From positions 1 through 51,471 of the forward strand of contig WFOJ01000096.1 of NCBI GenBank assembly GCA_015488125.1: a stretch of 51,471 bases of DNA, read 5' to 3'. Origin of the DNA: Mariprofundaceae bacterium (GTDB lineage Bacteria > Pseudomonadota > Zetaproteobacteria > Mariprofundales > Mariprofundaceae). The translations under genes and the position numbers were made by a program. The notes beneath the pieces were generated by a model. That model was not told the DNA's origin and searched no databases. It saw only the letters and a program-made list of their open reading frames with translations. Each line of letters begins with the position of its first letter. Position 1 is the stretch's first letter. Positions 4,132-27,154 of the stretch are shown here, piece by piece.

Positions 4132-6074
4132 GGTGTGGATTCCAGGCGAATGGAAAACGTCTTAACCCACCGGATCAAATTCAGCCATCGCCAGGTTTGC
4201 CAGTCAAAATCGCGCTGTCCCACCAATATCTCTTGCCATGTCTGGAGCATCGCTGTTTTGCTCAGGCATGGCATACAATCAGCTTCATGCAGCGTCTCCT
4301 CCACCCAGGGACGCAGTTCCTCCAGCCATTGCCTCTCCGGTGTAGCAAAACCGACCTTGTCCCGGCGATCCAGAATGTTATCCGGCACTATGCCGCGCAT
4401 AGCTTGCTTGAATACAGATTTTGTCTGGCCGGTGCCATCAATCAGGTAGCTTTCCGGAAGGGATAACGCGAACGCCGCCATCTCACGAGTCAGGAACGGT
4501 ACCCGGCTTTCGATGGAAAAGCGCATGGAATTCCTGTCACCATGCCGCAGTAATGCCGGTAGTCCGCGACGGGTTAATTGCCGTGCCAGTTCCTCGCGTA
4601 CATAATAACGGCTTTGGAAGCCTTCTTTGATGACTGGAAGATTGGTTCGAAGCTTGTGTTCTTGCAGCCAATCCTTGTTCAGCCAGGGAGGAGTGACCGA
4701 GCCACGACCGATGGAACGAAGTGCGGGATAAAGGCAAGCAGGTGTAAACTGAGCCACCAGACGCTTGAATACATCCGCCTTCGAACGATCAGGCCAACGA
4801 CTTGTCGCCTGAAAAAAACGCCATGCCTCCAGAACCTGGCCAGCCATGATCAGACTTTTAAGACGCTCTGCGGGAAAACCCATGTAGCCTGCGAACATCT
4901 CATCAGCGCCCTGTCCGTCAAGCGTTACAGTAACACCAGCTTCGCGGGCAAGGCGAAACACCCGGTATTGCGCATAGATGCTCGTGCTACCAAACGGCTC
5001 GCCCTGAGCCTGGATCAGATCATCCAGATCGTCCGTCAATTCCCGCGGACCAATACGCACTTTATATGCCTTGGAGCCAACATGATGAATAACGGTATCG
5101 GCCCAGGCCTCTTCATCTACCTCAGTTCCTGCCGCCACGTAGGTAAACGTCTTCAGTGGCATGTCCGGTTCCAGGTGACGGATGGCACAGGTCACGGCGG
5201 AGGAATCCACACCCCCGGAAAGCGCCGCGCCCAATGGTACATCGCTGCGCAGGTGCAGCCGCACATTCTTCAAAAACAGCTCGCGCAGCGCCTCAGCCGC
5301 CTCGGAAAAACTCAATGATGAGGTTCTGGTCAAATCCGGCTTCCAGTAGCGTTGCTGTTCGATAACCTCACCGGTATTTGTATCGATGGTCATGCAATGT
5401 CCTGGTGGAAGATGCAAAACTCCTTCCACCATGGTTTCATCCTGCGAGTCATAATCGCCAAAGATAAGATAATCATAGATGCGTTGCGGATCAGCCTTGC
5501 ACTCTACCGCAGGAGACCGCAACATCACAGGCAACTCGGAAGCAAAAAAGCATTGCCCGGATTTCGCTGCGGCATAATACAGCGGCTTGATGCCAAAGTG
5601 ATCCCGAATCAGGTACAGCTTTTTCTCCCTGTCGTCGTGAATCGCCATGGCAAACATGCCGGAAAAGCGGTTCAGGCACGCCAGCCCCCAACAGGCAAAA
5701 GCCTGAAGAACCACCTCGCTATCGGTATCTGTCCTAAATCGAACGCCCTGCGACCTCAGCTCTTCGCGCAATTCCAGATAGTTGTAAACCTCTCCGTTAA
5801 ACGAGAGCCGAAAACGACCATCCTCGGTCATCATCGGCTGTTTTCCAAGTGGGGAGAGGTCGAGAATCGAGAGCCGAACATGTCCGATAAACAGCGGTAC
5901 ATCGTCCCTCAGCTCATGTTCCCGCTCACACCATCGGCCATCTGCTAACTGAAACATCATGCCATGGTCATCAGGTCCACGGTGCCTTAACAAACGAAAA
6001 GCATCGGCAACCGTCTTCCGCACATTCCCCTGGGATCGCTCACCCCGCGACACCCAGCCGAAAATTCCACACAT
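4128..6074 (-). CDS. AsnB-family glutamine-dependent amidotransferase (asparagine synthetase-like), probable sugar uronamide-forming enzyme
   Basis: 648 aa. N-terminal MCGIFG (Cys2 nucleophile of class II GATases) and the PP-loop ALSGGVDSSAV. Confidence 0.9.
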   Translation of the reverse strand: MCGIFGWVSRGERSQGNVRKTVADAFRLLRHRGPDDHGMMFQLADGRWCEREHELRDDVPLFIGHVRLSILDLSPLGKQPMMTEDGRFRLSFNGEVYNYLELREELRSQGVRFRTDTDSEVVLQAFACWGLACLNRFSGMFAMAIHDDREKKLYLIRDHFGIKPLYYAAAKSGQCFFASELPVMLRSPAVECKADPQRIYDYLIFGDYDSQDETMVEGVLHLPPGHCMTIDTNTGEVIEQQRYWKPDLTRTSSLSFSEAAEALRELFLKNVRLHLRSDVPLGAALSGGVDSSAVTCAIRHLEPDMPLKTFTYVAAGTEVDEEAWADTVIHHVGSKAYKVRIGPRELTDDLDDLIQAQGEPFGSTSIYAQYRVFRLAREAGVTVTLDGQGADEMFAGYMGFPAERLKSLIMAGQVLEAWRFFQATSRWPDRSKADVFKRLVAQFTPACLYPALRSIGRGSVTPPWLNKDWLQEHKLRTNLPVIKEGFQSRYYVREELARQLTRRGLPALLRHGDRNSMRFSIESRVPFLTREMAAFALSLPESYLIDGTGQTKSVFKQAMRGIVPDNILDRRDKVGFATPERQWLEELRPWVEETLHEADCMPCLSKTAMLQTWQEILVGQRDFDWQTWRWLNLIRWVKTFSIRLESTP

Positions 6075-7353: not shown

Positions 7354-8237
7354 TCAACCTTTTTACCTCGCATGGTAATTCCATAGTGATCGACAAACTC
7401 ATGGGTTATTTTTAACTTTGCATTCCGAAACCACTTGCGAATTTCTTCCAGTCTATGCCTTGAACATAGCTGTGGATGATACCAGTCATAATTGATAACA
7501 ATGTTTTCCTGTTCTGAAAGTTCAGGATTCCAAAAGCATTTCATGAAGAAATGATAGATAAAACGTTGTAAATCGTATTCGCCTGCCTCAATATCCAGAA
7601 TATCAACAGCAGGAGCCTGGAACTTCACATCAAGCGCACTGAGAGCCTTACCCAGTGCAGTGATCTGCTCGCAAGCCTTCAATGCATCCTCGTACGAAAG
7701 CCCTGCAATTCTTTCGCGTACAAAATCATCAACAAATTCTCTTACCGGCGCCTTCTGCTTATACACATAAATAGCAATTTCGCCGCCATCTTCGAGAATA
7801 GATGTGAGATTGGAAAAAGCACGCGCTGGATCACTCGTGTGATGCAATACTTCCTGGCAGTAAATAAAATCGAATCGGCCCAAATCACTCAGATCACCCA
7901 GCAAATCCTTATCGGCAAAACTTATATTGATGCTATCCTGAAGATTTTTCCGGGCAATATCAGCCGCTACCAAATCAACGCCCATGATATGGGTTTTGTC
8001 AGGGTCAGTATATTTTCGTAGTAATGCCGTAACCCTGCCATTGCCACAGCCGGCATCCAGGATGCTTTTTTTATCGGAGAGAAACCGTCTCAACGCATCG
8101 GGAGAATCAAATCCGTTACGGGACAAAATCCACTGAAAAATATCACTGCCTTCGGTGATAGTGCTCTCAAAAGCACAATTTTCATTATTGCTCCACTTAT
8201 CGTGAAAGCTTTTTTTTGTATTACATGAATCGCTCAT
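7350..8237 (-). CDS. class I SAM-dependent methyltransferase
   Basis: 295 aa. Motif I is ILDAGCGNGRVT. 4-nt overlap with the downstream gene. Confidence 0.85.
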   Translation of the reverse strand: MSDSCNTKKSFHDKWSNNENCAFESTITEGSDIFQWILSRNGFDSPDALRRFLSDKKSILDAGCGNGRVTALLRKYTDPDKTHIMGVDLVAADIARKNLQDSINISFADKDLLGDLSDLGRFDFIYCQEVLHHTSDPARAFSNLTSILEDGGEIAIYVYKQKAPVREFVDDFVRERIAGLSYEDALKACEQITALGKALSALDVKFQAPAVDILDIEAGEYDLQRFIYHFFMKCFWNPELSEQENIVINYDWYHPQLCSRHRLEEIRKWFRNAKLKITHEFVDHYGITMRGKKVE

Positions 8238-8249
8238 ACTATTTCTCGT

Positions 8250-9119
8250 TTACAAAAGATCCTGAACGCCATCTTCAAAATGAACAACAGGATCCACAAG
8301 CAAAGACTTCATCTTTTTGATATCACCGATCAGGTTTCCCGATTCTGCAGATGGGTTAACTTCAAAAGTCGGTGTGGTATTCAGCTTTTCCCCAATAATC
8401 TCACATAACTCTCGTAGTGATAATGCATCAGGCCCTGCCACATTAAGGCGGTGACAACCTTTAAGCTTCAGAGCATGGGAAATAGCTCTGACCGCATCAG
8501 AAACATGAACAGGGTTGATATGCAACCCGTCGTTACCCTGAAGACGTACCGCTTTTCCATCCCTGATACTGTCAACCAGTCTGGGAATCAGCATGCTTCT
8601 TTTTTGTCCCTTGCCATAGACAAAAAAGAACCGAAGGAGGACGATATTCATGTAAGGCGCATAATTCTCTGCAAGCATTTCCGAGCAAAGCTTGCTCGAC
8701 AAATAGAAGCCAATGTTTCCACTGGCTGGAATGGTAATGCTTTCTTCCACGCTGTTTTCCGGAAATCCATACACGCCACCGCTGGATGCATAAATAAAGC
8801 TTTTTACCCCTGTTCTTCTGGCAAAGTCCAGAGCCTTGAGGACCTGAAAGGTATTTACCGAGAAAATATTGATTGCCTTATCGGGAAAATCACGAAAATA
8901 ATCCGACTGCGCCAGATACACGATTGCATCGGCTCGTTTTGGCAAGCTTCCGTCATCAAAGTCTTGTTCCAGGTCAATGCAGTGCCATGAGATGTCAGTT
9001 TTGTTGATCGCATGTTTTTTTCTTGAGACGGCGTGAATATTCCATGTGTCAGCCAGTTCTTTTACCAAATGCCGACCAATCAGTCCGCTAGCCCCTGTGA
9101 TGATCACCGTCTTACCCAT
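8250..9119 (-). CDS. NAD-dependent epimerase/dehydratase (extended SDR)
   Basis: MGKTVIITGASGLIGRHL Rossmann motif, YASSGGVYG and YLSSK (YxxxK). I chose the ATG at 9119 (M16 of the track ORF), which leaves an 8-nt overlap with the wzx stop. Confidence 0.85.
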   Translation of the reverse strand: MGKTVIITGASGLIGRHLVKELADTWNIHAVSRKKHAINKTDISWHCIDLEQDFDDGSLPKRADAIVYLAQSDYFRDFPDKAINIFSVNTFQVLKALDFARRTGVKSFIYASSGGVYGFPENSVEESITIPASGNIGFYLSSKLCSEMLAENYAPYMNIVLLRFFFVYGKGQKRSMLIPRLVDSIRDGKAVRLQGNDGLHINPVHVSDAVRAISHALKLKGCHRLNVAGPDALSLRELCEIIGEKLNTTPTFEVNPSAESGNLIGDIKKMKSLLVDPVVHFEDGVQDLL

Positions 9120-18448: not shown

Positions 18449-19597
18449 TTAGCTTGCGATTCCTTTGATGCACTCAACCACATAAGCGTAATCATCCGCT
18501 GTCATCCTGTTATGCAGTGGAATCGCCATGGTATGGGCATCGCATGCTTTAGCTGCCGGAAAATCATCTGCCCGGATACCAAAGCGATCCCGGTATAGCC
18601 CCAGCATATGCACAGCATGCGTTCCCGGCCGGGTGGCAATGCCTCGCTGTTGCAAGGCATCCATAATATCGTTGCGTGGCATTGGCGCCCTTTCAGGTTC
18701 CACCCATGTGGTAAACGCCTGCCAGGCATGGCGGCCGCCCGCCGGTTCATCGGGCAGACGCAGCCACGCCACATCAGCCAGCTGATCACGATACCAGGCT
18801 GCCCAGTTGGCGCGTTCAGAAATGAAGGACTCCAGTTTGGCAAGCTGAACCAGCCCAACAGCGCCTTGTAAATCCGTCATGCGATAATTAAAGCCGAGCA
18901 GATTGAATGCTGGCAACAGGTAAGGGTGCGCCCCCTTGTGCCGCTGTTCCTCGGAGATACTGGCGCCGTGATTGCGCATCATGTTCATCTGTTCAAAAAG
19001 CGCATCGTCGTTGGTGGTGATCATGCCACCTTCACCCGTGGTAATGGATTTGCGCGGATGAAAGGAAAACACCCCTGCATCGCCCAGGCCACCAGCCTTT
19101 TTCCCTTGGTAGCTCGCACCCGCTGCACAGGCCGCATCCTCGATGATTTTGACATGCGGTGGAATGACTTTGCGAATGGCATCCATATCGGCGCACAAGC
19201 CGAATAAATGCACCGGAATAATGGCTTTGGTTTTTTCCGTTATCTTGCCGACCACATCGTCAGCATCCATGTTAAACGTCATTGGATCAACATCCGCAAA
19301 CACAGGGGTCGCGCCACAATAAAGCACAACATTCGCCGTTGCCACCCAGGTAAAGGCTGGTACGATCACTTCATCGCCCTCACCAACACCCATGGCTGCC
19401 AGCGCCAGATGCAGGCCGGTTGTGCAGCTTGTCACGGCCAGCGCATGTTTCACATCATGCGCTTTGGCGAACTGCGCCTCGAACTCAGCTACCTTTGGCC
19501 CTTGCGTCAGCCAACCACTCATAATGGGTTCACGCACTGCCTGCCATTCCTCTTCTCCGGTGGCAGGTAGCGAAATGTGTATCTGTCGTTTATGCAT
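18449..19597 (-). CDS. DegT/DnrJ/EryC1/StrS-family PLP-dependent sugar aminotransferase (second aminotransferase of the locus)
   Basis: Motifs GDEVIVPAFTWVATAN and SFHPRKSITTGEGGMITTND (PLP lysine). I chose the ATG at 19597 (MHKRQIHISLP..), which overlaps the upstream stop. The longer track ORF start at 19663 would run into the previous gene. Confidence 0.9.
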   Translation of the reverse strand: MHKRQIHISLPATGEEEWQAVREPIMSGWLTQGPKVAEFEAQFAKAHDVKHALAVTSCTTGLHLALAAMGVGEGDEVIVPAFTWVATANVVLYCGATPVFADVDPMTFNMDADDVVGKITEKTKAIIPVHLFGLCADMDAIRKVIPPHVKIIEDAACAAGASYQGKKAGGLGDAGVFSFHPRKSITTGEGGMITTNDDALFEQMNMMRNHGASISEEQRHKGAHPYLLPAFNLLGFNYRMTDLQGAVGLVQLAKLESFISERANWAAWYRDQLADVAWLRLPDEPAGGRHAWQAFTTWVEPERAPMPRNDIMDALQQRGIATRPGTHAVHMLGLYRDRFGIRADDFPAAKACDAHTMAIPLHNRMTADDYAYVVECIKGIAS

Positions 19598-20609
19598 CCG
19601 CAAGTCCGACGGCTGCCCGGCGAGCGGCCACCTCAGCCTTATGTGCCTTGCGCCAATCAACAAGCTTTCGCAGGCCTTCCATCAAATCATACTTCGCTTC
19701 AAAGCCGATTTCTTCCCTGGCTTTCCTGGGGCAGCCGATCCGGTTGCGTACCAGCGTTGCCTGACTGCGTGGCGCATACTGAATTTCTTTATCACAGCCC
19801 GTGATTTCCAGCAGCATTTCTGCTAACTCCTTTAAGGATGTTCGCTTGCCTGTCCCTACATTGTAAAAGCTATCGGTTGCATCCGACTTCATAGCACACA
19901 CATTGGCACGACCACAATCCTCGACAGCGACAAAGTCGAAGGCCTCAGAACCATCACCGAGGATCGTCGGCGCTTCTCCGCGATCAATAGCATCAAGCAT
20001 TTTCATGATCACAGCAATATAGGCACCGTTATAATCCTGACGCGGGCCATACACATTCATATAGCGCAGGCCAACAAAATCAAAATGCTTATCCGTTCCC
20101 TTATAGCGATGATGCAACGAGCGGCACATGTGTTCGCCGGCGATCTTGGTGGCACCATAGAAATTCAGATTATTGTACGGGTGATCCTCCGTCATCGGCT
20201 CTTCGACAGCATCGCCGTAAACAGATGCCGAGGATGAGTAAACCAGGCGTTTAACACCGTTATTCAGCATGGCTTCCAATACATTAAACGTTCCACCGAT
20301 ATTGACCTCGAAGGCAGACCGTGGAAAATCATGACAGTGCAACAGCCATAATGCGGCAAAATGGAACACGCCATCGATACCCTTCATCGCTTCATTGAGT
20401 AAGTCCCGATGCAGTAATTCTCCGCCAAGTGGAAAAATATTTACACGCGGATCCTTAAGCGCTTCAGCCAGGTTTTCCCGACTGCCGCGGGAAAAATTAT
20501 CGTAGATGCGAATCTCTTCGACATCCTCCTTGACCAACTCATCCACACAGTGCGAACCGATCAGCCCACCGCCGCCAATTACCAACAGACGTTTACCTTT
20601 TAAATCCAT
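19590..20609 (-). CDS. NAD-dependent epimerase/dehydratase (extended SDR; WbpK/WbmF-H-like)
   Basis: MDLKGKRLLVIGGGGLIGSHCV, YSSSASVYG and YGATK. The ATG at 20609 is preceded by AAGGAG 6 nt upstream. Confidence 0.85.
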   Translation of the reverse strand: MDLKGKRLLVIGGGGLIGSHCVDELVKEDVEEIRIYDNFSRGSRENLAEALKDPRVNIFPLGGELLHRDLLNEAMKGIDGVFHFAALWLLHCHDFPRSAFEVNIGGTFNVLEAMLNNGVKRLVYSSSASVYGDAVEEPMTEDHPYNNLNFYGATKIAGEHMCRSLHHRYKGTDKHFDFVGLRYMNVYGPRQDYNGAYIAVIMKMLDAIDRGEAPTILGDGSEAFDFVAVEDCGRANVCAMKSDATDSFYNVGTGKRTSLKELAEMLLEITGCDKEIQYAPRSQATLVRNRIGCPRKAREEIGFEAKYDLMEGLRKLVDWRKAHKAEVAARRAAVGLADA

Positions 20610-20610
20610 T

Positions 20611-21813
20611 CTAAACTCCTTTTTGATCCACAATATATTTTGCAAAACTCATCGAACTGGTAAACGCCGGTGAGATCGCATTCAGCACATGCGTGCTGTT
20701 AACGCCATTTTCTACAACAAAATCCATCACCAATTCATGTTTTTTTATGTCCAGCAGTTGTGCCCGAATACCCACCTTGTCACTGGCAAGCAGGTCTTCA
20801 TCCCTTAACTCCGGAGTTAGATGGCGCGCCGCTTCGGCAAATTTTGAGCGAAAAAAGCGCAATGCTTCCGCATGTGAAAAGTCTCTAAAGCCCTGTTTAT
20901 TCAAGATGTACTGCTGCCCAAGTCGAAACAGTATCGAAACACTTTCTGCCAGGTTTATACCTTCCAGCCCTTTATAGTGCTCGCGGCCCAGTGCCGGAAC
21001 AGCAGTCGGCCCCAAGTACACATGACCATCAATTTTTTTCGTATAGTGAACACCCAGAAATGGTACATTCAAATCAGGTACAGGATATATCATACGGTTG
21101 CAGATAACTTTCGATGTTGGCGATAGCCGGTAATAAATCCCCTTGAAAGGCAACAATGTGTAGCGCTCACCTACACCGAGCTGCTTACCCACCTGATCTG
21201 CATACTGACCGGAAGAATTAAACAACCATCCATAGCCATATGTGCCGGTTCGTGTTCTCAGCCATGCGTTGCTGGCATCCACCTCCATGATTTCAGCATT
21301 AAACTGAAACGTCACCCCATTGGCTTGCAGGATCCGCGCCATATGGCAAACGATGGATTTTGGTTCGACCACTGCGGTATCTGGCGCATATAGTGCCTGA
21401 CCCGTAGCAGTTCTGGCAGACGGCTCCAGTTCATGAAGCTGCGCCGCATTGAGCAACTCCACTCGCGCCCCGTTGGCCTGGGCACGCCTAAATAACAAAT
21501 CCAGTTGCTGATCATCATCTGAGCGAACAGGCACAATTACCTTGCCCAGTCGCGCAATAGGAAGACGGTTGCGATCACAATACTCAGCCATCAACCTGGC
21601 GCCATCGGCGCACATTCTGGCCTTTAACGATTCTTCGGGATAGTAGATGCCAGAGTGTAGCACACCACTATTGCGACCACTGCCATGCCGACCCACTTCC
21701 GACTCTTTTTCAAGTATAAGAACAGAGCAATCAGGCTCTCTAGATAACAATTCGCGAGCTACTGTCAAGCCGACAATGCCAGCGCCGATGATGATATAAT
21801 CGTACGGTTTCAC
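20611..21813 (-). CDS. lhgO: FAD-dependent L-2-hydroxyglutarate oxidase/dehydrogenase family protein
   Basis: 400 aa with a GTG start. The motifs YDYIIIGAGIVGL, ILEKESEVGRHGSGRNSGVLHSGIYY, PFKGIYYRL, MIYPVPDLNVPFLGVHYTKKIDGHV and HVLNAISPAFTSS track the E. coli LhgO (YgaF) motifs as I recall them. Confidence 0.75.
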   Translation of the reverse strand: MKPYDYIIIGAGIVGLTVARELLSREPDCSVLILEKESEVGRHGSGRNSGVLHSGIYYPEESLKARMCADGARLMAEYCDRNRLPIARLGKVIVPVRSDDDQQLDLLFRRAQANGARVELLNAAQLHELEPSARTATGQALYAPDTAVVEPKSIVCHMARILQANGVTFQFNAEIMEVDASNAWLRTRTGTYGYGWLFNSSGQYADQVGKQLGVGERYTLLPFKGIYYRLSPTSKVICNRMIYPVPDLNVPFLGVHYTKKIDGHVYLGPTAVPALGREHYKGLEGINLAESVSILFRLGQQYILNKQGFRDFSHAEALRFFRSKFAEAARHLTPELRDEDLLASDKVGIRAQLLDIKKHELVMDFVVENGVNSTHVLNAISPAFTSSMSFAKYIVDQKGV

Positions 21814-21814
21814 T

Positions 21815-23350
21815 TCAGGAAGCCACCGCCTCTTTCAGCATGCAGACGGTGATTTCCTGATTCTCATGAGTCAAATACGGATGCATCGGCAAGCTCATCA
21901 CGCGTTCAGCGGCATATTCGCTGCGTTCAAAATGCTCTGGATGTGCCAGAGCTGGTTGGTGATTCAGTGGAATCGGATAATGCACAGCGGTGGGAACCCC
22001 GGCTTCTTTCAAGTGTGCCTGCACGGCATCGCGGTTTTCCACCTGCACCGTATATTGCGCATAAACCGACGTATTGTATGGCTCGATGTACGGCGTTGTT
22101 ACGATATCGCCCAGCAATTCCGTATAGCGTGCGCCGATTCGCGCTCGCGCTTGCACTTCTTCATCAAACACATCCAGCTTGGCCAGCAGAATCGCTGCCT
22201 GCAAGGTGTCCAGCCGACCATTCACGCCAATGCGTGGATGGTGATAACGCCGATCCTGACCATGCACGCGAATCTCGCGCATGGCTTTGGCCAGGTCATC
22301 ATCATTGGTAAAGCAGGCCCCGCCATCGCCATAACAGCCCAGCGGCTTGGAGGGAAAAAAGCTGGTGCAGCCGATCGTGGTCAAACCGCACGATTTTCTA
22401 CCCTTGTAGGTAGCGCCGAAGCTCTGGCAGCCATCTTCAATCACCGGCAGGCCATGTTTTTCCGCAATCGCGTTAATCGCGTCATAGTCTGCGCATTGGC
22501 CATAGAGCGATACCGGCATGATCGCCTTGGTTTTTTCTGTAACCGCCGCTTCCAACAGCGAAGGATCCAGGTTGTAGGTTTTGGGATCAATATCGACAAA
22601 CACCGGCCTGGCACCAAGCAGGGCGATCGTTTCCGCTGTGGCAATAAAGCTAAATGGCGTGGTAATCACCTCATCACCTGACCCAACACCCAGCGCCATC
22701 AGGGCAATCAGCAGCGCATCGGTGCCGCTGGCTACGCCAATGGCATGTTGTACGTTCACATACTCTGCCAGCCGTTCTTCCAGTGCTTCGACCTCCCGGC
22801 CCATGATATAACGTCCATGATGCAGCACTGCATGCATGTTTTTTTCCAGTTGCGGACGAAGCAGATCCTGTTGTGTTTTCAGGTCGATGAAATCAGTGCC
22901 GCTTTCAGATGATGGTTGATCCAGCCAGTCTAATGCCTCTGAGGGGGTCACTGCATCCACATCACCCAATGTATCAAAGGTTCGGTTGCTTGTAACAATC
23001 ACCGCTTCCCCATGCAGGGCACAGGCAGCCAGTGCAATCTGGGCATCTTCATAATCACGCGCTTTTGCATATGCGTTGCGTTGTTCATAACCAAAATTAC
23101 TCAATACATTGACCCGGGATAACAGATGATCCATCAACTGCTGCACCATGGCACGCGCTTCCGAACCACTAGCTCCGGCATGTATCAGTTGGCGGGTAGC
23201 GAGATAGTCCAGGATAGGCAAAGAAGATGCCGACACCCAGCCGGAAGCCCGCCTGCCAACCGCATCAAACAGGAGTTGGAGCGCTTCAACATTCGCTCTG
23301 GCAAACCACAAATCGAGAACCGCACTCACATCGAAAACAAGGTGTTTCAT
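21815..23350 (-). CDS. wbpE: fusion protein: N-terminal PIN-like (VapC-type) domain plus full-length WbpE/WlbC-type UDP-3-oxo-sugar aminotransferase
   Basis: Residues 1-~150 ([56 protein letters not shown]) look PIN-like. After a linker DWLDQPSSESGTD with no in-frame stop or start codon comes FIDLKTQQDLL..GVASGTDAL..SFFPSKPLGCYGDGGACFTND (DegT fold with PLP lysine). The ATG at 23350 overlaps the upstream ORF stop as ATGA. Confidence 0.85.
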   Translation of the reverse strand: MKHLVFDVSAVLDLWFARANVEALQLLFDAVGRRASGWVSASSLPILDYLATRQLIHAGASGSEARAMVQQLMDHLLSRVNVLSNFGYEQRNAYAKARDYEDAQIALAACALHGEAVIVTSNRTFDTLGDVDAVTPSEALDWLDQPSSESGTDFIDLKTQQDLLRPQLEKNMHAVLHHGRYIMGREVEALEERLAEYVNVQHAIGVASGTDALLIALMALGVGSGDEVITTPFSFIATAETIALLGARPVFVDIDPKTYNLDPSLLEAAVTEKTKAIMPVSLYGQCADYDAINAIAEKHGLPVIEDGCQSFGATYKGRKSCGLTTIGCTSFFPSKPLGCYGDGGACFTNDDDLAKAMREIRVHGQDRRYHHPRIGVNGRLDTLQAAILLAKLDVFDEEVQARARIGARYTELLGDIVTTPYIEPYNTSVYAQYTVQVENRDAVQAHLKEAGVPTAVHYPIPLNHQPALAHPEHFERSEYAAERVMSLPMHPYLTHENQEITVCMLKEAVAS

Positions 23351-23601
23351 GAATGTTTTTCCGCCAGATGCTGATGCCATGCCGCCTTATCATCGGCCAC
23401 CGTTTGCGGCGTATGGCCCTGACGGTATTTTCCAAGAATTGCATTCAGCTCGTCAGCAATCGTGTTATCCACCGCTTCAGTTGACGAAATTTCAAGCGCC
23501 TCATCCGGAAGCTCAATGACGACCTGAAACGACTCGCGCCGAAGCTTTAGCTGCCTCGGCAACCGCAGTGTGCCATGATCATAAAAAGCTGTTACCCGCA
23601 T
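23347..23601 (-). CDS. small antitoxin-like protein (DUF104/AF2212-type, VapB-like)
   Basis: 84 aa. The N-terminus [34 protein letters not shown] matches the pattern of DUF104 antitoxins (M..A.Y.nG.l.P...l.L.e...v.i.i). It has an ATGA overlap with the PIN ORF, and its start overlaps the wbpD stop by 10 nt. Confidence 0.6.
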
Positions 23602-24167
23602 ATCCGCTGCACCTCACCACCCTTCAATCGATACCGCTCTCCGGTATGTACACACGTCGTATCAGCCTCGCCATGCAAAGGCAAGTCAAGCCGTTCACCA
23701 TAAGCGCTCATCCAGCCGATTTGTTTGGCTGGCACACCCACCATCAACGCGTAATCAGGCACATCCCGATTCACTACAGCGCCTGCGCCGATGAATGCGT
23801 AACAACCAATCGTCGTACCACACACGATTGTGCAGTTCGCGCCGAGCGTCGCACCTTGCTTCACCAGCGTATCGCGATATTCATGCTTGCGGGAAACCGC
23901 AGAACGCGGGTTATAGACATTGGTAAACACCATGCTCGGGCCACAAAATACATCATCCTCAAGTATCACATTGTCATAAACAGAGACATTGTTTTGAATT
24001 TTCACGTTATTGCCGATGACCACCCGGTTGCCGACAAAAACATTCTGCCCCAACGAACAGCCCTGACCGATACGTGCGCCACCGCATACATGCACCCAAT
24101 GCCAGATCCGCGTTCCCTCACCGACCAAAGCGCCATCATCAACAACCGCTGTTTCATGCACCTGCAT
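23592..24167 (-). CDS. wbpD: left-handed beta-helix N-acetyltransferase, UDP-2-acetamido-3-amino-2,3-dideoxy-glucuronate 3-N-acetyltransferase type
   Basis: 191 aa. The sequence [80 protein letters not shown] closely follows WbpD/WlbB as I recall it. Confidence 0.85.
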
Positions 24168-24170
24168 GAC

Positions 24171-25223
24171 TCAATACTCCAGCGGCAGGGCAACAGTTCG
24201 GCCATCACGGGCAGAGAGGTAAGCAGCAATCAGTACTTCAAGCGACTTCAGGCCCTCGCGCCCATCGGTTTCCGGTTCACATATGCCACGCAGTGTATCC
24301 ACAACGTTCTTGTAATACAGCGGATGACCAAAGCCATATACAGAGGTGGTTTCATAACTGGCTTCCCGTACCTGTTCATCATAGTCCCGGCTGTCAGCAA
24401 ACTCCCAGTGCTGAATTTCATTAACAGCCACCCCTCCGACGCGCACCGTGCCTTTCTCGCCAAGGATCGTCATCGAACCTTCCAGGTTTTTCGGCCACGT
24501 CAGCATGCTGACGGCCATGGAACCCAAGGTGCCAGAGCGCCAGCGAATATTTAACACGCCCGTATCTTCCACCTCAATATTTCTGCCCAGCGTAGCGGTC
24601 ATGGCCTGCACGCGATCAACCGGACCGATCAGCCAATCGAGCAGATCAACATAATGACTGGCCTGGTTCATAAAGGCACCGCCATCCAGTTCCCACGTTC
24701 CCCGCCATTTGGCAGAGTCATAGTAAGCCTGTGGACGCGTCCAGAAGACGTTCAAATGCACCATGTAAATACGTCCAAAACGTTGTTCGCAAACAGCGCG
24801 CTTAAGCAATTGCAGGGTCGAATTGCGCCGATTTTGCTTGACGACAAACAATCGAACATTGGCCTGGTCACAGGCGCGCACCATGCGCAGGCCATCCGTC
24901 CAGCGGGTAGCCATGGGCTTTTCCGTCATCACATGCACACCAAAACGGGCTGCCATGACAGCTTGTTCCGGGTGCATACCGCTGGGTGTACACAACGCCA
25001 CAAGATCGGGATGTTCCCGATCAAGCATGGTTTCAAGATGCTGATAGCTGGGCACGCCATAACGTTCGCCATGTGTACGGGCAACATCCGGGTTCGCATC
25101 GCATACTGCGATAAGTTGCAAATCCTCGCCATGGCAGGCAATCGCCTTAAAATGATTTTGCGCAATACGACCGCAGCCGACAACGGCAATGCGAATGGGA
25201 CGATCATTGATCACAGGAAACAT
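24171..25223 (-). CDS. wbpB: Gfo/Idh/MocA oxidoreductase, UDP-GlcNAcA 3-dehydrogenase type
   Basis: 350 aa. Motifs RIAVVGCGRIAQNHF (Rossmann), MTEKPMATRW and FVVKQNRRN. It sits between wbpA-like and wbpD-like genes. Confidence 0.85.
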   Translation of the reverse strand: MFPVINDRPIRIAVVGCGRIAQNHFKAIACHGEDLQLIAVCDANPDVARTHGERYGVPSYQHLETMLDREHPDLVALCTPSGMHPEQAVMAARFGVHVMTEKPMATRWTDGLRMVRACDQANVRLFVVKQNRRNSTLQLLKRAVCEQRFGRIYMVHLNVFWTRPQAYYDSAKWRGTWELDGGAFMNQASHYVDLLDWLIGPVDRVQAMTATLGRNIEVEDTGVLNIRWRSGTLGSMAVSMLTWPKNLEGSMTILGEKGTVRVGGVAVNEIQHWEFADSRDYDEQVREASYETTSVYGFGHPLYYKNVVDTLRGICEPETDGREGLKSLEVLIAAYLSARDGRTVALPLEY

Positions 25224-25226
25224 GGG

Positions 25227-26519
25227 CTACGCCTTAACAAGATTGGGCGCATCTTGACGATACACACCTCTGGAATCAACCACCAGCGATGCATGCTGAA
25301 GAATCATTGCATAATCAAAATCCTGATGGTTGGTGGCAATCACCACGGCATCATAGCTACGGATCACTTCATCACTCAGTGCCGTGCTGGCAAGATCAAA
25401 ATGATGCTCGCGCATTTTGGGAAAAACCGGCACATAAGGATCGCTGTAGGCAACCACAGCGCCTTTGGCACGAAGCAACTCCATAATTTCAACCGATGGC
25501 GATTCACGCATATCATCCACATTGGGCTTGTAAGCAATACCCAATACCAGAATATGGCTGCCATTGAGTGCTTTTTGTTGCCTGTTCAGACCATCCACCA
25601 ACTTGCCGACCACCCACTGGGGCATGGCCGTGTTGACTTCCCCGGCAAGCTCGATAAAGCGCGTGTTAAGGCCGTATTCCCGCGCTTTCCAGGTCAGATA
25701 AAACGGGTCAATCGGGATGCAATGCCCGCCAAGTCCGGGGCCGGGATAATAGGGCGTAAAGCCAAAAGGCTTGGTGGCAGCAGCCTGAATCACTTCGTGA
25801 ATATCCACGCCCATGCTGTCGGCGACGATTTTCATTTCGTTAACCAGGCCGATGTTGACAGCGCGGTGGATGTTTTCCAGCAGCTTGGTCATCTCCGCTG
25901 CACGTGTTGAACTTACAGGCACAACCTGATCAATCGCAGGACTGTAAAGCGCAATACCCACTTCAAGACAATCCGGCGTGTGACCCCCGCATACCTTGGG
26001 AATGGTGCGAGTGACAAAATCGGGATTACCCGGATCTTCCCGTTCAGGAGAATAGACAAGAAAAACATCCTTGCCAACTTTCAAGCCGGAAGATTCGATA
26101 CGCGGCAACAATTCTTCTTCAGTGGTGCCAGGATAAGTAGTGCTTTCCAGCGATAGTACCTGGCCGCTCCGCAAATAGGGCACCAGCGCATCGGTGGTAT
26201 TCGTGACGAATGCAAGATCAGGTTCCCGATATTTATTCAGCGGTGTGGGTACGCAAATAATCAATGCATCTGCTTTTGTTGCCTGCGAAAAATCCGTGGT
26301 CGCCTCAAAGCCACATTGCGTTACCGCATGTGTTATTGCCGACGATGAGATGTGCCGGATATAGCTTTTTCCCGCATTGAGCGCATGTACCTTGGACGGG
26401 TCGATATCAATCCCCAGCACCTTAAAGCCGACCTCGGCATAGCGCAACACCAGCGGCAGGCCCACATAACCCAAGCCAATAATGCCGATCACGGCTGTTT
26501 TTGTTTGAAATTTGTCCAT
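25227..26519 (-). CDS. wbpA: UDP-N-acetyl-D-glucosamine (or mannosamine) 6-dehydrogenase
   Basis: [23 protein letters not shown] Rossmann start and the [13 protein letters not shown] catalytic Cys motif. I chose the ATG at 26519. The 40-aa N-terminal extension in the track ORF has no homolog-like character. Confidence 0.9.
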
Positions 26520-27154
26520 TAACTGATCTTTGATCACACTTATATTCCTTGTAGTGATTCGATGTGTTGTTGTAATAACATCAGTTTCTCTCCTACCGTT
26601 AAACAAAGCAACGGTCGTCACGAAACAACCCAGCGACAACCATACGTAGCTTGCATACTGGCAGAGTCAATTCAAAAAGACAAAACGCCATCGTCACGCA
26701 CTTGTTGGTAACGAAAAAAATTGACCTCTATCTGTGCTTGGGTATTTTTCTGTGCGGACTCGTCAACCAATTGCCGCCTCATGCATTGAAAGGAACGCAT
26801 CCACCACACACCTTGTTTACAGCAAGGAAGAAAAAGCATTTTTTATGCTTACTGCGAAAATCCCACGTTTAAAACTATGTCATCCGTACTCACTGATGGC
26901 TATTGTTGTGCCATGCGCTGATCATCTCCGCACGGATGGCCGAATACTGCCGCAAATATTTCGCTGCGGCTACAATTGCCTGTTTTGAGTTTATATCAAC
27001 ACGATGCTACCATTTTTTCAGACCAAACGGGGCATACTCCGGTCACGCGACATTCAATCTGCTTGTTACCCAATATCTCCGATCATCAATAACCTGTCTT
27101 TACAGGCGTCAACTGAAACAACGATAGCGTGTATTTTTCACACAGCTTGTGTAA

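Follow-up and report, generated by a model that had tools for sequence, protein, structure and literature searches.

We analysed a 51,471-nt stretch of DNA (the window), contig WFOJ01000096.1 of assembly GCA_015488125.1 from a Mariprofundaceae bacterium. All of the genes discussed here lie on its minus strand, and coordinates refer to the window unless another locus is named. At the junction between a wbpD-like gene and wbpE, the window encodes a toxin-antitoxin (TA)-type cassette made up of a small open reading frame (ORF) and a PIN domain, and the PIN domain is fused in frame to a complete WbpE aminotransferase. We consider this anatomy to be virtually certain. The best explanation for it is that a toxin domain lost its stop codon and became the N-terminal part of WbpE. 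We further propose that the cassette is a functional VapBC-like type II TA pair whose toxin is tethered to WbpE as an N-terminal domain, a prediction from sequence and modelled structure to which we assign a probability of about 0.6.

Organization of the cassette

The cassette begins with an ORF of 84 codons (23347..23601), whose ATG lies within the 3' end of the wbpD-like gene (23592..24167, a hexapeptide N-acetyltransferase with a Hexapep match), such that the two genes overlap by 10 nt (23592..23601). At its other end, the TGA of the small ORF (23349..23347) overlaps the ATG of the next ORF (23350..23348) in an ATGA (23347..23350). Both overlaps had been pointed out in an earlier reading of the letters and ORFs of this DNA, made without database searches (hereafter the sequence-only reading), and the coordinates bear them out. 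The second ORF (21815..23350, stop included) is open for 511 codons. It encodes a PIN_3/VapC-fold domain (residues 1-144; 22919..23350), indicated by a sub-threshold Pfam match, by an AlphaFold2 (AF2) model, and by Foldseek; a variable linker of nine residues (residues 145-153, DQPSSESGT D; 22892..22918); and a WbpE-type UDP-2-acetamido-2-deoxy-3-oxo-glucuronate aminotransferase domain (residues 154-511; 21815..22891). A second in-frame ATG for this ORF lies upstream at 23380, but the homologues and gene callers favour 23350.

The aminotransferase part is matched by DegT_DnrJ_EryC1 at residues 169-499 with 392 bits. Residues 154-500 of the fusion align to residues 4-352 of Pseudomonas aeruginosa WbpE (PDB 3NYU) with an E-value of 2e-150, and because the alignment starts from residue 4 of WbpE, the enzyme domain is complete, as had been proposed from the uninterrupted frame. 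The pyridoxal phosphate (PLP) lysine, K335 (22348..22346), and D306 do not vary among the 25 homologues that were aligned.

The fusion is found in many bacteria

A long ORF of this kind could be an artefact in which an assembly or sequencing error, such as a missed stop codon or a frameshift, has joined two genes. We found no point in support of this. The identical 511-residue protein, preceded by the same 84-residue neighbour, recurs on four contigs, which derive from independent assemblies of ENA and Logan. When we searched with the full-length protein, 118 clusters among the 120 best matches could be classified, of which 105 are fusions of 505-564 residues that are 57-87% identical to the window protein over about its whole length, and 13 are ordinary WbpE proteins of 357-363 residues. 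These 105 clusters are the fusions counted throughout this work. Many of the fusion homologues carry precomputed matches to both PF13470 and PF01041. A pattern-limited scan of GTDB species genomes, which gives a lower bound, yielded at least 21 loci, and in 20 of 21 the PIN frame continues into WbpE (19 could be read to the stop codon, and one was ended by a contig edge). The identical protein on four contigs, the 105 clusters, the 20 uninterrupted loci, and the missing WbpE start codon described below lead us to reject an artefact, the likelihood of which we regard as negligible.

The 20 fusion loci from named genomes span the Gamma-, Beta-, and Zetaproteobacteria and the Desulfobacterota. 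The hosts of the GTDB loci include Accumulibacter, Thauera, Sulfuricella, Polaromonas, Gallionellaceae, Halomonas, Halospina, Modicisalibacter, Halochromatium, Parabeggiatoa, Zetaproteobacteria, Desulfamplus, Desulfobulbia, Desulfobacterales, and Geobacteraceae. When we compared the orthologous wbpD-wbpE junctions, we found that wbpD is followed by the small ORF and then by PIN-wbpE at most of the approximately 23 distinct loci, with a WbpD homologue directly adjoining in many of them. At one locus (L005), the small ORF and the chimera are situated outside of any wbp operon. The fusion is therefore a widespread, conserved architecture and a family to be characterized, rather than a one-off of the window.

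In the source databases these proteins are annotated only as “aminotransferase”, with some homologues assigned to K13017 by JGI. The sequence-only reading knew of no described PIN-aminotransferase fusion, and our full-text literature searches likewise brought up no publication that describes a protein joining PIN to DegT or WbpE; nor is a PIN-DegT architecture mentioned in the main text of a classification of the PIN superfamily (PMC5499597). A “PIN - pfam00155 aminotransferase” neighbourhood, with 24 cases, appears in Makarova et al. (2009; PMC2701414), who did not pursue it because they took it to belong to a wider association of genes; it may be an early sighting of the association described here.

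The WbpE domain lacks a start codon of its own

The earlier claim that the aminotransferase has no start of its own stands: in the window there is no in-frame ATG, GTG, or TTG at residues 135-171. The nearest in-frame candidates are the TTG of L128 and the GTGs of V131 and V134, all of which are within the PIN domain, and the ATG of M172 would truncate WbpE. At the position of the ancestral WbpE methionine, which falls in the linker, the window has ACT (T152). The residues found at this position in the 105 fusions, with their counts, are I47/L34/M9/A6/V4/T3/P2/S1. Where the DNA was read (24 loci), the codon is mostly one base away from ATG (ATC, ATA, ATT, or CTG). The ancestral WbpE start thus has the look of a decayed start codon.

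Alternatively, there may be two products, with a stand-alone WbpE of ~40 kDa arising from an internal GTG (V131 or V134) or by proteolysis of the linker, in which case the fusion would exist only at the DNA level. This idea is compatible with a TA pair. The two GTGs lie 20 and 23 codons before FIDLK, which makes a stand-alone enzyme possible in the window, and methionine is retained at the ancestral start in nine of the 105 fusions. Further, the linker is variable, and the C-terminal, linker end of the AF2 model has a low pLDDT. On the other hand, no in-frame ATG, GTG, or TTG is found within 30 codons upstream of FIDL at six other loci (L010, L011, L021, L022, L024, and L027), which makes an internal start unlikely as a property of the family. 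The ancestral start is Ile or Leu in 81 of the 105 fusions, the codons at the 24 loci read as DNA are mostly not bacterial starts, and by eye there is no convincing Shine-Dalgarno sequence 5' of the GTGs in the window. We consider two products to be improbable.

A VapC fold with conserved acidic residues at the N-terminus of the fusion

The sequence-only reading had placed a PIN domain at the N-terminus of the fusion, and both homologues and modelled structure agree. PIN_3 (PF13470) is matched by 22 of 24 homologous N-terminal domains at E <= 0.01, with a best E-value of 4e-11. An AF2 model of the domain, built with 24 sequences, has a pLDDT of 94.2 and a pTM of 0.89. When this model was compared to the PDB with Foldseek, PIN domains made up nearly all of the 30 best matches, most of them from VapC or FitB toxins, with probabilities of 1.0 and template modelling (TM) scores of 0.55-0.74. 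At the top are VapC toxins whose structures come from VapBC complexes (3ZVK, 6NKL, 7VWO, 1V8O, and 5ECW; TM 0.6-0.7). Among the weak matches (E 0.03-0.08) is the RohQ cyclodehydratase (9c5w), a protein without a nuclease annotation. In a search of PDB sequences, the PIN profile matched designed helical-repeat proteins and nothing else, and we judged these to be spurious. An exhaustive HMMER search of 1.84 billion representatives gave 42 matches at E <= 0.001. Of the 26 that we inspected, 24 belong to the fusion family, nearly all of them fragments, while one is a generic stand-alone PIN_3 protein and one is spurious. So few matches, with nearly all of those inspected from the fusion family, indicate that the PIN domain described here is a sharply delimited subclade of PIN_3.

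The acidic residues of the window domain are D7 (23332..23330), D48, D99, E101, D102, and D126. D7, E101, and Q104 are conserved in 105 of 105 fusions, D102 in 103, D99 in 101, and an acid at position 48 (E/D) in 97. Position 122 is D or E in 99 of the 105, the window being among the six without an acid there. The four acidic positions of classical PIN domains, which had been singled out as a check on this assignment, are all retained in 91 of the 105 fusions, and the window copy has three of the four.

Alternatively, the domain might have been exapted to bind or act on a small phosphodiester ligand, such as the uridine diphosphate (UDP) moiety of the pathway intermediates. It might then serve channelling or proofreading, or hydrolyse its ligand, and the small protein would be its cofactor. 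A conserved acidic pocket on a domain that is tethered to a nucleotide-sugar enzyme would fit this idea, as would the presence of RohQ among the weak structural matches. However, VapC RNase toxins account for all of the best structural matches, and, as described below, the small ORF and PIN domain exist as a stand-alone pair without a sugar enzyme, the module is dispensable in sister WbpE lineages, and the upstream partner shows the layout and coupling of an antitoxin. We regard such an exaptation as very unlikely.

The small ORF is a conserved partner of the PIN domain

A homologous small ORF of 81-122 codons lies immediately 5' of the PIN domain in 25 of 25 loci examined. In each of the 25, its stop codon is at most 20 nt from the first conserved residue of the PIN domain, and overlap of the two ORFs is the usual case. 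For at least six loci, translation of the chimera could begin only at a TTG that falls within the 3' end of the small ORF, which implies that translation of the two is coupled. The family comprises 72 clusters, and where a source gives any name for its members, that name is “hypothetical protein”. Its N-terminus is conserved as MQvEAiYdnGrLeLPxxlxLKhxxfxVxVxvPDeE and its C-terminus as ILG...WHqHLEEKyL, with a variable middle. An AF2 model of the small protein (pLDDT 74) has an N-terminal beta-hairpin (residues 1-35 in the window), a variable linker, and two C-terminal helices (residues 47-60 and 68-83), which is the usual layout of an antitoxin.

When the family profile was searched against PDB sequences, the single match was AF_2212 (2NWT), with an E-value of 0.049. 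An hhalign comparison of the profile to AF2212 gave a probability of 86.5% over the N-terminal 35 columns, and six of 42 family members weakly match PF01954 (E 0.0075-1). AF2212/COG2880 has been predicted to be an AbrB-like antitoxin of PIN toxins (PMC2701414). Altogether, the assignment of the small protein as a DUF104/AF2212-like antitoxin is plausible but weakly supported. It is based on position, translational coupling, co-variation with the PIN domain (below), and the weak profile match to AF2212, with no significant hidden Markov model (HMM) match among its supports.

One further protein contains the N-terminal domain of the small ORF in another setting. In P0230, a 71-residue protein from an ENA metagenome, the usual C-terminal helices are replaced by an RNA-binding domain, TRAM_2 (PF18693, E 3.5e-9), to which this domain (MQLEAIYREGQIHFTTPIRLKNHPIRVRIDVPDDEID) is joined.

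The cassette is under selection and has a history separate from that of WbpE

The pair is found without wbpE, and wbpE is found without the cassette. In Candidatus Parabeggiatoa (L025), a small ORF is followed, with an ATGA-type overlap, by a PIN ORF of 152 codons that ends at a TAA, with no aminotransferase after it. This pair, the sole confirmed free-standing form, looks like the ancestral two-gene cassette. Conversely, sister WbpE lineages that are ~80% identical (P0046/L030 and Mariprofundus L031) do not have the module, and in these wbpD directly abuts wbpE.

We computed the ratio of nonsynonymous to synonymous substitution rates (dN/dS) in four close pairs. The ratio is 0.11-0.26 for the PIN domain, 0.10-0.29 for the small ORF, and 0.13-0.22 for WbpE, while a 15-codon linker segment gave 0.22-0.99. 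The PIN domain and the small ORF are under purifying selection. Taken together with the conserved acids, these low ratios rule against the PIN domain being a decaying, inactive relic across the family. They likewise disfavour, for the family, the inactive, domesticated PIN that the sequence-only reading had considered, though the window copy carries a substitution at position 122.

To compare the histories of the parts, we performed Mantel tests on pairwise distances across 18 loci. Distances for the small ORF correlate with those for the PIN domain (rho 0.48, p 0.003). Against the PIN domain, the C-terminal 32 residues of the small protein give rho 0.53 (p 0.0007) and its N-terminal 36 residues rho 0.18 (p 0.10). 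Neither the small ORF (rho -0.18) nor the PIN domain (rho -0.25) correlates significantly with WbpE.

Separate histories are clearest in the operon of P0015/L006, where identity to the window is 85-97% for wbpE, lhgO, the epimerase, and degT2 but only 10-30% for the PIN domain, with the break in identity at about residue 150 of the fusion. The small ORFs of the two loci have only the N-domain in common. The type of cassette has thus been swapped at a fixed wbpD/wbpE junction between near-identical operons, and the history of the cassette is separate from that of WbpE. Synonymous divergence is also lower in the PIN segment than in the WbpE segment in four of four close pairs (0.29 versus 0.68 for the window and L001, 1.07 versus 1.45 for L008 and L010, 0.18 versus 0.45 for L011 and L014, and 0.10 versus 0.37 for L013 and L016), which points to a mosaic history within a single ORF.

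These observations bear on whether the module could instead be a domesticated regulator that tunes the pathway, either because the PIN domain cleaves wbp mRNA or because the small protein gates the assembly or activity of dimeric WbpE through the PIN domain. Several features are in keeping with a regulator. The module occupies the same operon junction in most loci, is confined to chromosomes in our searches, has no promoter of its own that we could find in the window, and is under purifying selection comparable to that on the enzyme domain. Given what is established for VapC and for the DegT family, dimerization of the PIN domain would be compatible with fusion to a dimeric enzyme. Against a regulator, closely related WbpE genes function without the module in P0046/L030 and Mariprofundus L031, which indicates that it is dispensable for the pathway. 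In addition, the pair in L005 lies outside any wbp operon, the pair in L025 has no WbpE, and the swapping of cassettes and their decoupling from WbpE look like the behaviour of a selfish element. We therefore view a regulatory role as unlikely, if worth keeping in mind.

Evidence against a functional TA pair

A number of our results weigh against the proposal of a functional VapBC-like pair. The first concern the identification of its two parts in the window. Residues 4-123 cover nearly all of the PIN_3 model (PF13470, positions 2-114 of 115), but the score of 24.6 bits is below the gathering score of 27. The 84-residue protein has no match in Pfam or NCBIfam, and PF01954, the family to which that reading had looked, is not matched; of the DUF104/VapB-like N-terminus that it described, the weak resemblance between the family profile and AF2212 stands. 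A fold search with the model of the small protein gave no significant match (two VapB chains appeared at E-values of 4-9, which we do not count as evidence). The window domain also has N122 (22987..22985) at the position of the usual fourth Asp, leaving three of the four classical acids, with D126 kept. Some active VapCs, such as that of Shigella, have the fourth acid a few residues later, and for this reason N122 is suggestive of attenuation rather than decisive. The window's own copy may be attenuated.

Other results concern the setting of the cassette. Scans for promoters, terminators, and palindromes 5' of the small ORF in the window found nothing above chance, and no operator-like palindrome recurs in the window and three relatives. 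With no promoter-like site upstream of the small ORF, the cassette in the window is probably transcribed within the operon mRNA. A tblastn search with the PIN domain did not find this cassette subfamily on 72,556 plasmids or 50,697 phage records, and the PADLOC defence models gave no match to the cassette. The association with mobile elements or defence islands that is typical of many TA modules is therefore lacking. The co-variation of the small ORF and the PIN domain could stem from physical or genetic linkage, and not from binding, and the GTG codons described above leave room for a stand-alone WbpE in the window. Finally, toxicity, RNase activity, and partner binding are predicted properties of the PIN-WbpE family.

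Proposed mechanism

With these points taken into account, we favour a functional VapBC-like pair tethered to WbpE, and propose that it would operate as follows. The C-terminal helices of the small protein would bind the PIN domain and block its active site. Translation of PIN-WbpE would be coupled to that of the small ORF, by the ATGA in the window and by weak TTG starts elsewhere, such that the chimera would not be made without its inhibitor. Were the small protein to become depleted, the tethered PIN domain would cleave RNA, resulting in growth arrest. The fusion would lock the cassette into a needed gene, because a nonsense or frameshift mutation in the PIN domain would also abolish WbpE. 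The most likely pay-off would be that a frequently exchanged glycan locus is stabilized, and so kept from being lost or replaced, or that the cell responds to the shut-off of host expression.

A more speculative and, in our estimation, doubtful extension is that PIN-WbpE is a locked-in addiction or checkpoint device, in which an antitoxin-gated RNase is tethered to a surface-glycan enzyme. If the locus were lost, replaced, or shut off, for instance through a phage whose receptor is the glycan, the labile small protein would be depleted and the stable toxin-enzyme chimera released. The divergent cassettes swapped at the wbpD/wbpE junction would then be the record of an arms race over control of the locus.

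Comparison with known systems

VapBC systems such as Rickettsia felis VapBC2 (3ZVK), Haemophilus influenzae VapBC-1 (6NKL), and the VapBCs of Mycobacterium tuberculosis share with the cassette a small upstream gene that overlaps the start of the PIN gene, a VapC fold with conserved acids, and an upstream protein that has a small N-terminal beta domain and C-terminal helices. The differences are that the VapBC toxin is a free protein of ~130 residues, while here it is an N-terminal domain on a 358-residue PLP enzyme and thus not a small free toxin; that VapBC systems have their own promoter and operator, none of which we detected; and that none of the DNA-binding N-domains of VapBC antitoxins (AbrB, ribbon-helix-helix, Phd, or helix-turn-helix) is recognizable by HMM in the small protein.

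A small upstream protein is likewise paired with a PIN gene in the COG2880/DUF104 (AF2212-like, PF01954)-PIN pairs of archaea and thermophiles (PMC2701414). The N-terminal motif xEAxYenGxxxPxxxxxLkeGxxVxv is common to these and to the small proteins described here, though the similarity is marginal. The present family is instead found in mesophilic Proteobacteria and in Desulfobacterota, and AF2212 does not have the conserved C-terminal ILG...WHxHLEEKyL extension.

Compared to P. aeruginosa WbpE and Bordetella WlbC (3NU7 and 3NYU), the C-terminal 358 residues of the fusion are shared end to end, as are the PLP lysine and the wbpA/wbpB/wbpD context. The window enzyme differs in having no start codon of its own, an extension of 153 residues made up of the PIN domain and linker, and a small ORF between it and wbpD. 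A VapC-group PIN domain that is covalently joined to a larger enzymatic domain has a precedent in PhoH2, a fusion of PIN and a PhoH ATPase, as noted in the classification of the PIN superfamily (PMC5499597). Here, in contrast, the partner is a PLP aminotransferase of metabolism that is not known to have a function with nucleic acids, and an antitoxin-like gene is retained.

Neighbouring genes and other cassettes in wbp operons

Upstream of the wbpD-like gene, the window encodes a wbpB-like GFO/IDH/MocA oxidoreductase (24171..25223, recognized by Pfam/NCBIfam) and a wbpA-like NDP-sugar 6-dehydrogenase (25227..26537; TIGR03026, 427 bits). For the latter we use the start of the 436-residue gene call on an identical contig (L028), the mechanical ORF extending to 26639. 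Downstream of the fusion are a flavin adenine dinucleotide (FAD) oxidase of the L-2-hydroxyglutarate oxidase family (20611..21813; NF008726, 342 bits against a cutoff of 299), which belongs to the operon context and lies outside the cassette, followed by an SDR epimerase, a second DegT, and an asparagine-synthase-like amidotransferase. This gene set looks like an operon for a 2,3-diacetamido-uronic-acid sugar. Among the mechanical ORFs, that of the epimerase (19590..20645) overlaps the oxidase ORF by 35 nt, and that of the second DegT (18449..19663) overlaps the epimerase ORF by 74 nt. Both of these long overlaps are probably artefacts of the ORF listing, since on L028 the called genes start later and overlap far less.

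The FAD oxidase begins 1 nt after the stop codon of PIN-wbpE, and it recurs next to wbpE, with a copy after it, in L006 (4979-6181), L020 (1489-2328), L024 (5022-6200), and L031 (3938-5014 and 6087-7289). In Mariprofundus erugo, wbpE is flanked by two DAO genes. The WbpB of P. aeruginosa converts 2-ketoglutarate to D-2-hydroxyglutarate and is inhibited by this product, which is recycled by an unlinked D2HGDH (PMC8651671). A 2-hydroxyglutarate oxidase encoded in the operon could close this cycle locally, depending on its stereospecificity (L versus D).

Several wbp operons of relatives contain other small cassettes. L001 has an MNT/HEPN pair between wbpB and wbpD as well as a PF01850 PIN pair upstream of wbpA (1121-1731 and 4524-5181). 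In Thioalkalivibrio (L003), a PDDEXK_3 gene lies between wbpB and wbpD (4417-4824). An ORF6N gene follows wbpE in L030 (1821-2363), and L005 has an MNT-type pair near the chimera (8236-8966). This suggests that small cassettes of a TA-like or nuclease-like kind have repeatedly settled in the wbp glycan operons.

Implications of a VapC-type domain fused to a glycan enzyme

Type II toxins are normally small free proteins, and chromosomal copies are often held to be dispensable and prone to decay. In the family described here, a VapC-type domain has been welded to a surface-sugar enzyme, yet its catalytic residues and its partner have been kept across several bacterial phyla. More than 100 database entries named “aminotransferase” carry an unrecognized, predicted nuclease domain, and the family of the small partner is unnamed. 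Culturable hosts of the fusion include Halospina denitrificans, Modicisalibacter muralis, Halochromatium glycolicum, Thauera phenylacetica, and Thioalkalivibrio. Should the pair prove active, it would be a natural case of a selfish cassette that has escaped loss by fusing to a useful gene, and it could reveal a new way of stabilizing or policing O-antigen/lipopolysaccharide loci, which are hot spots of exchange and of phage pressure.

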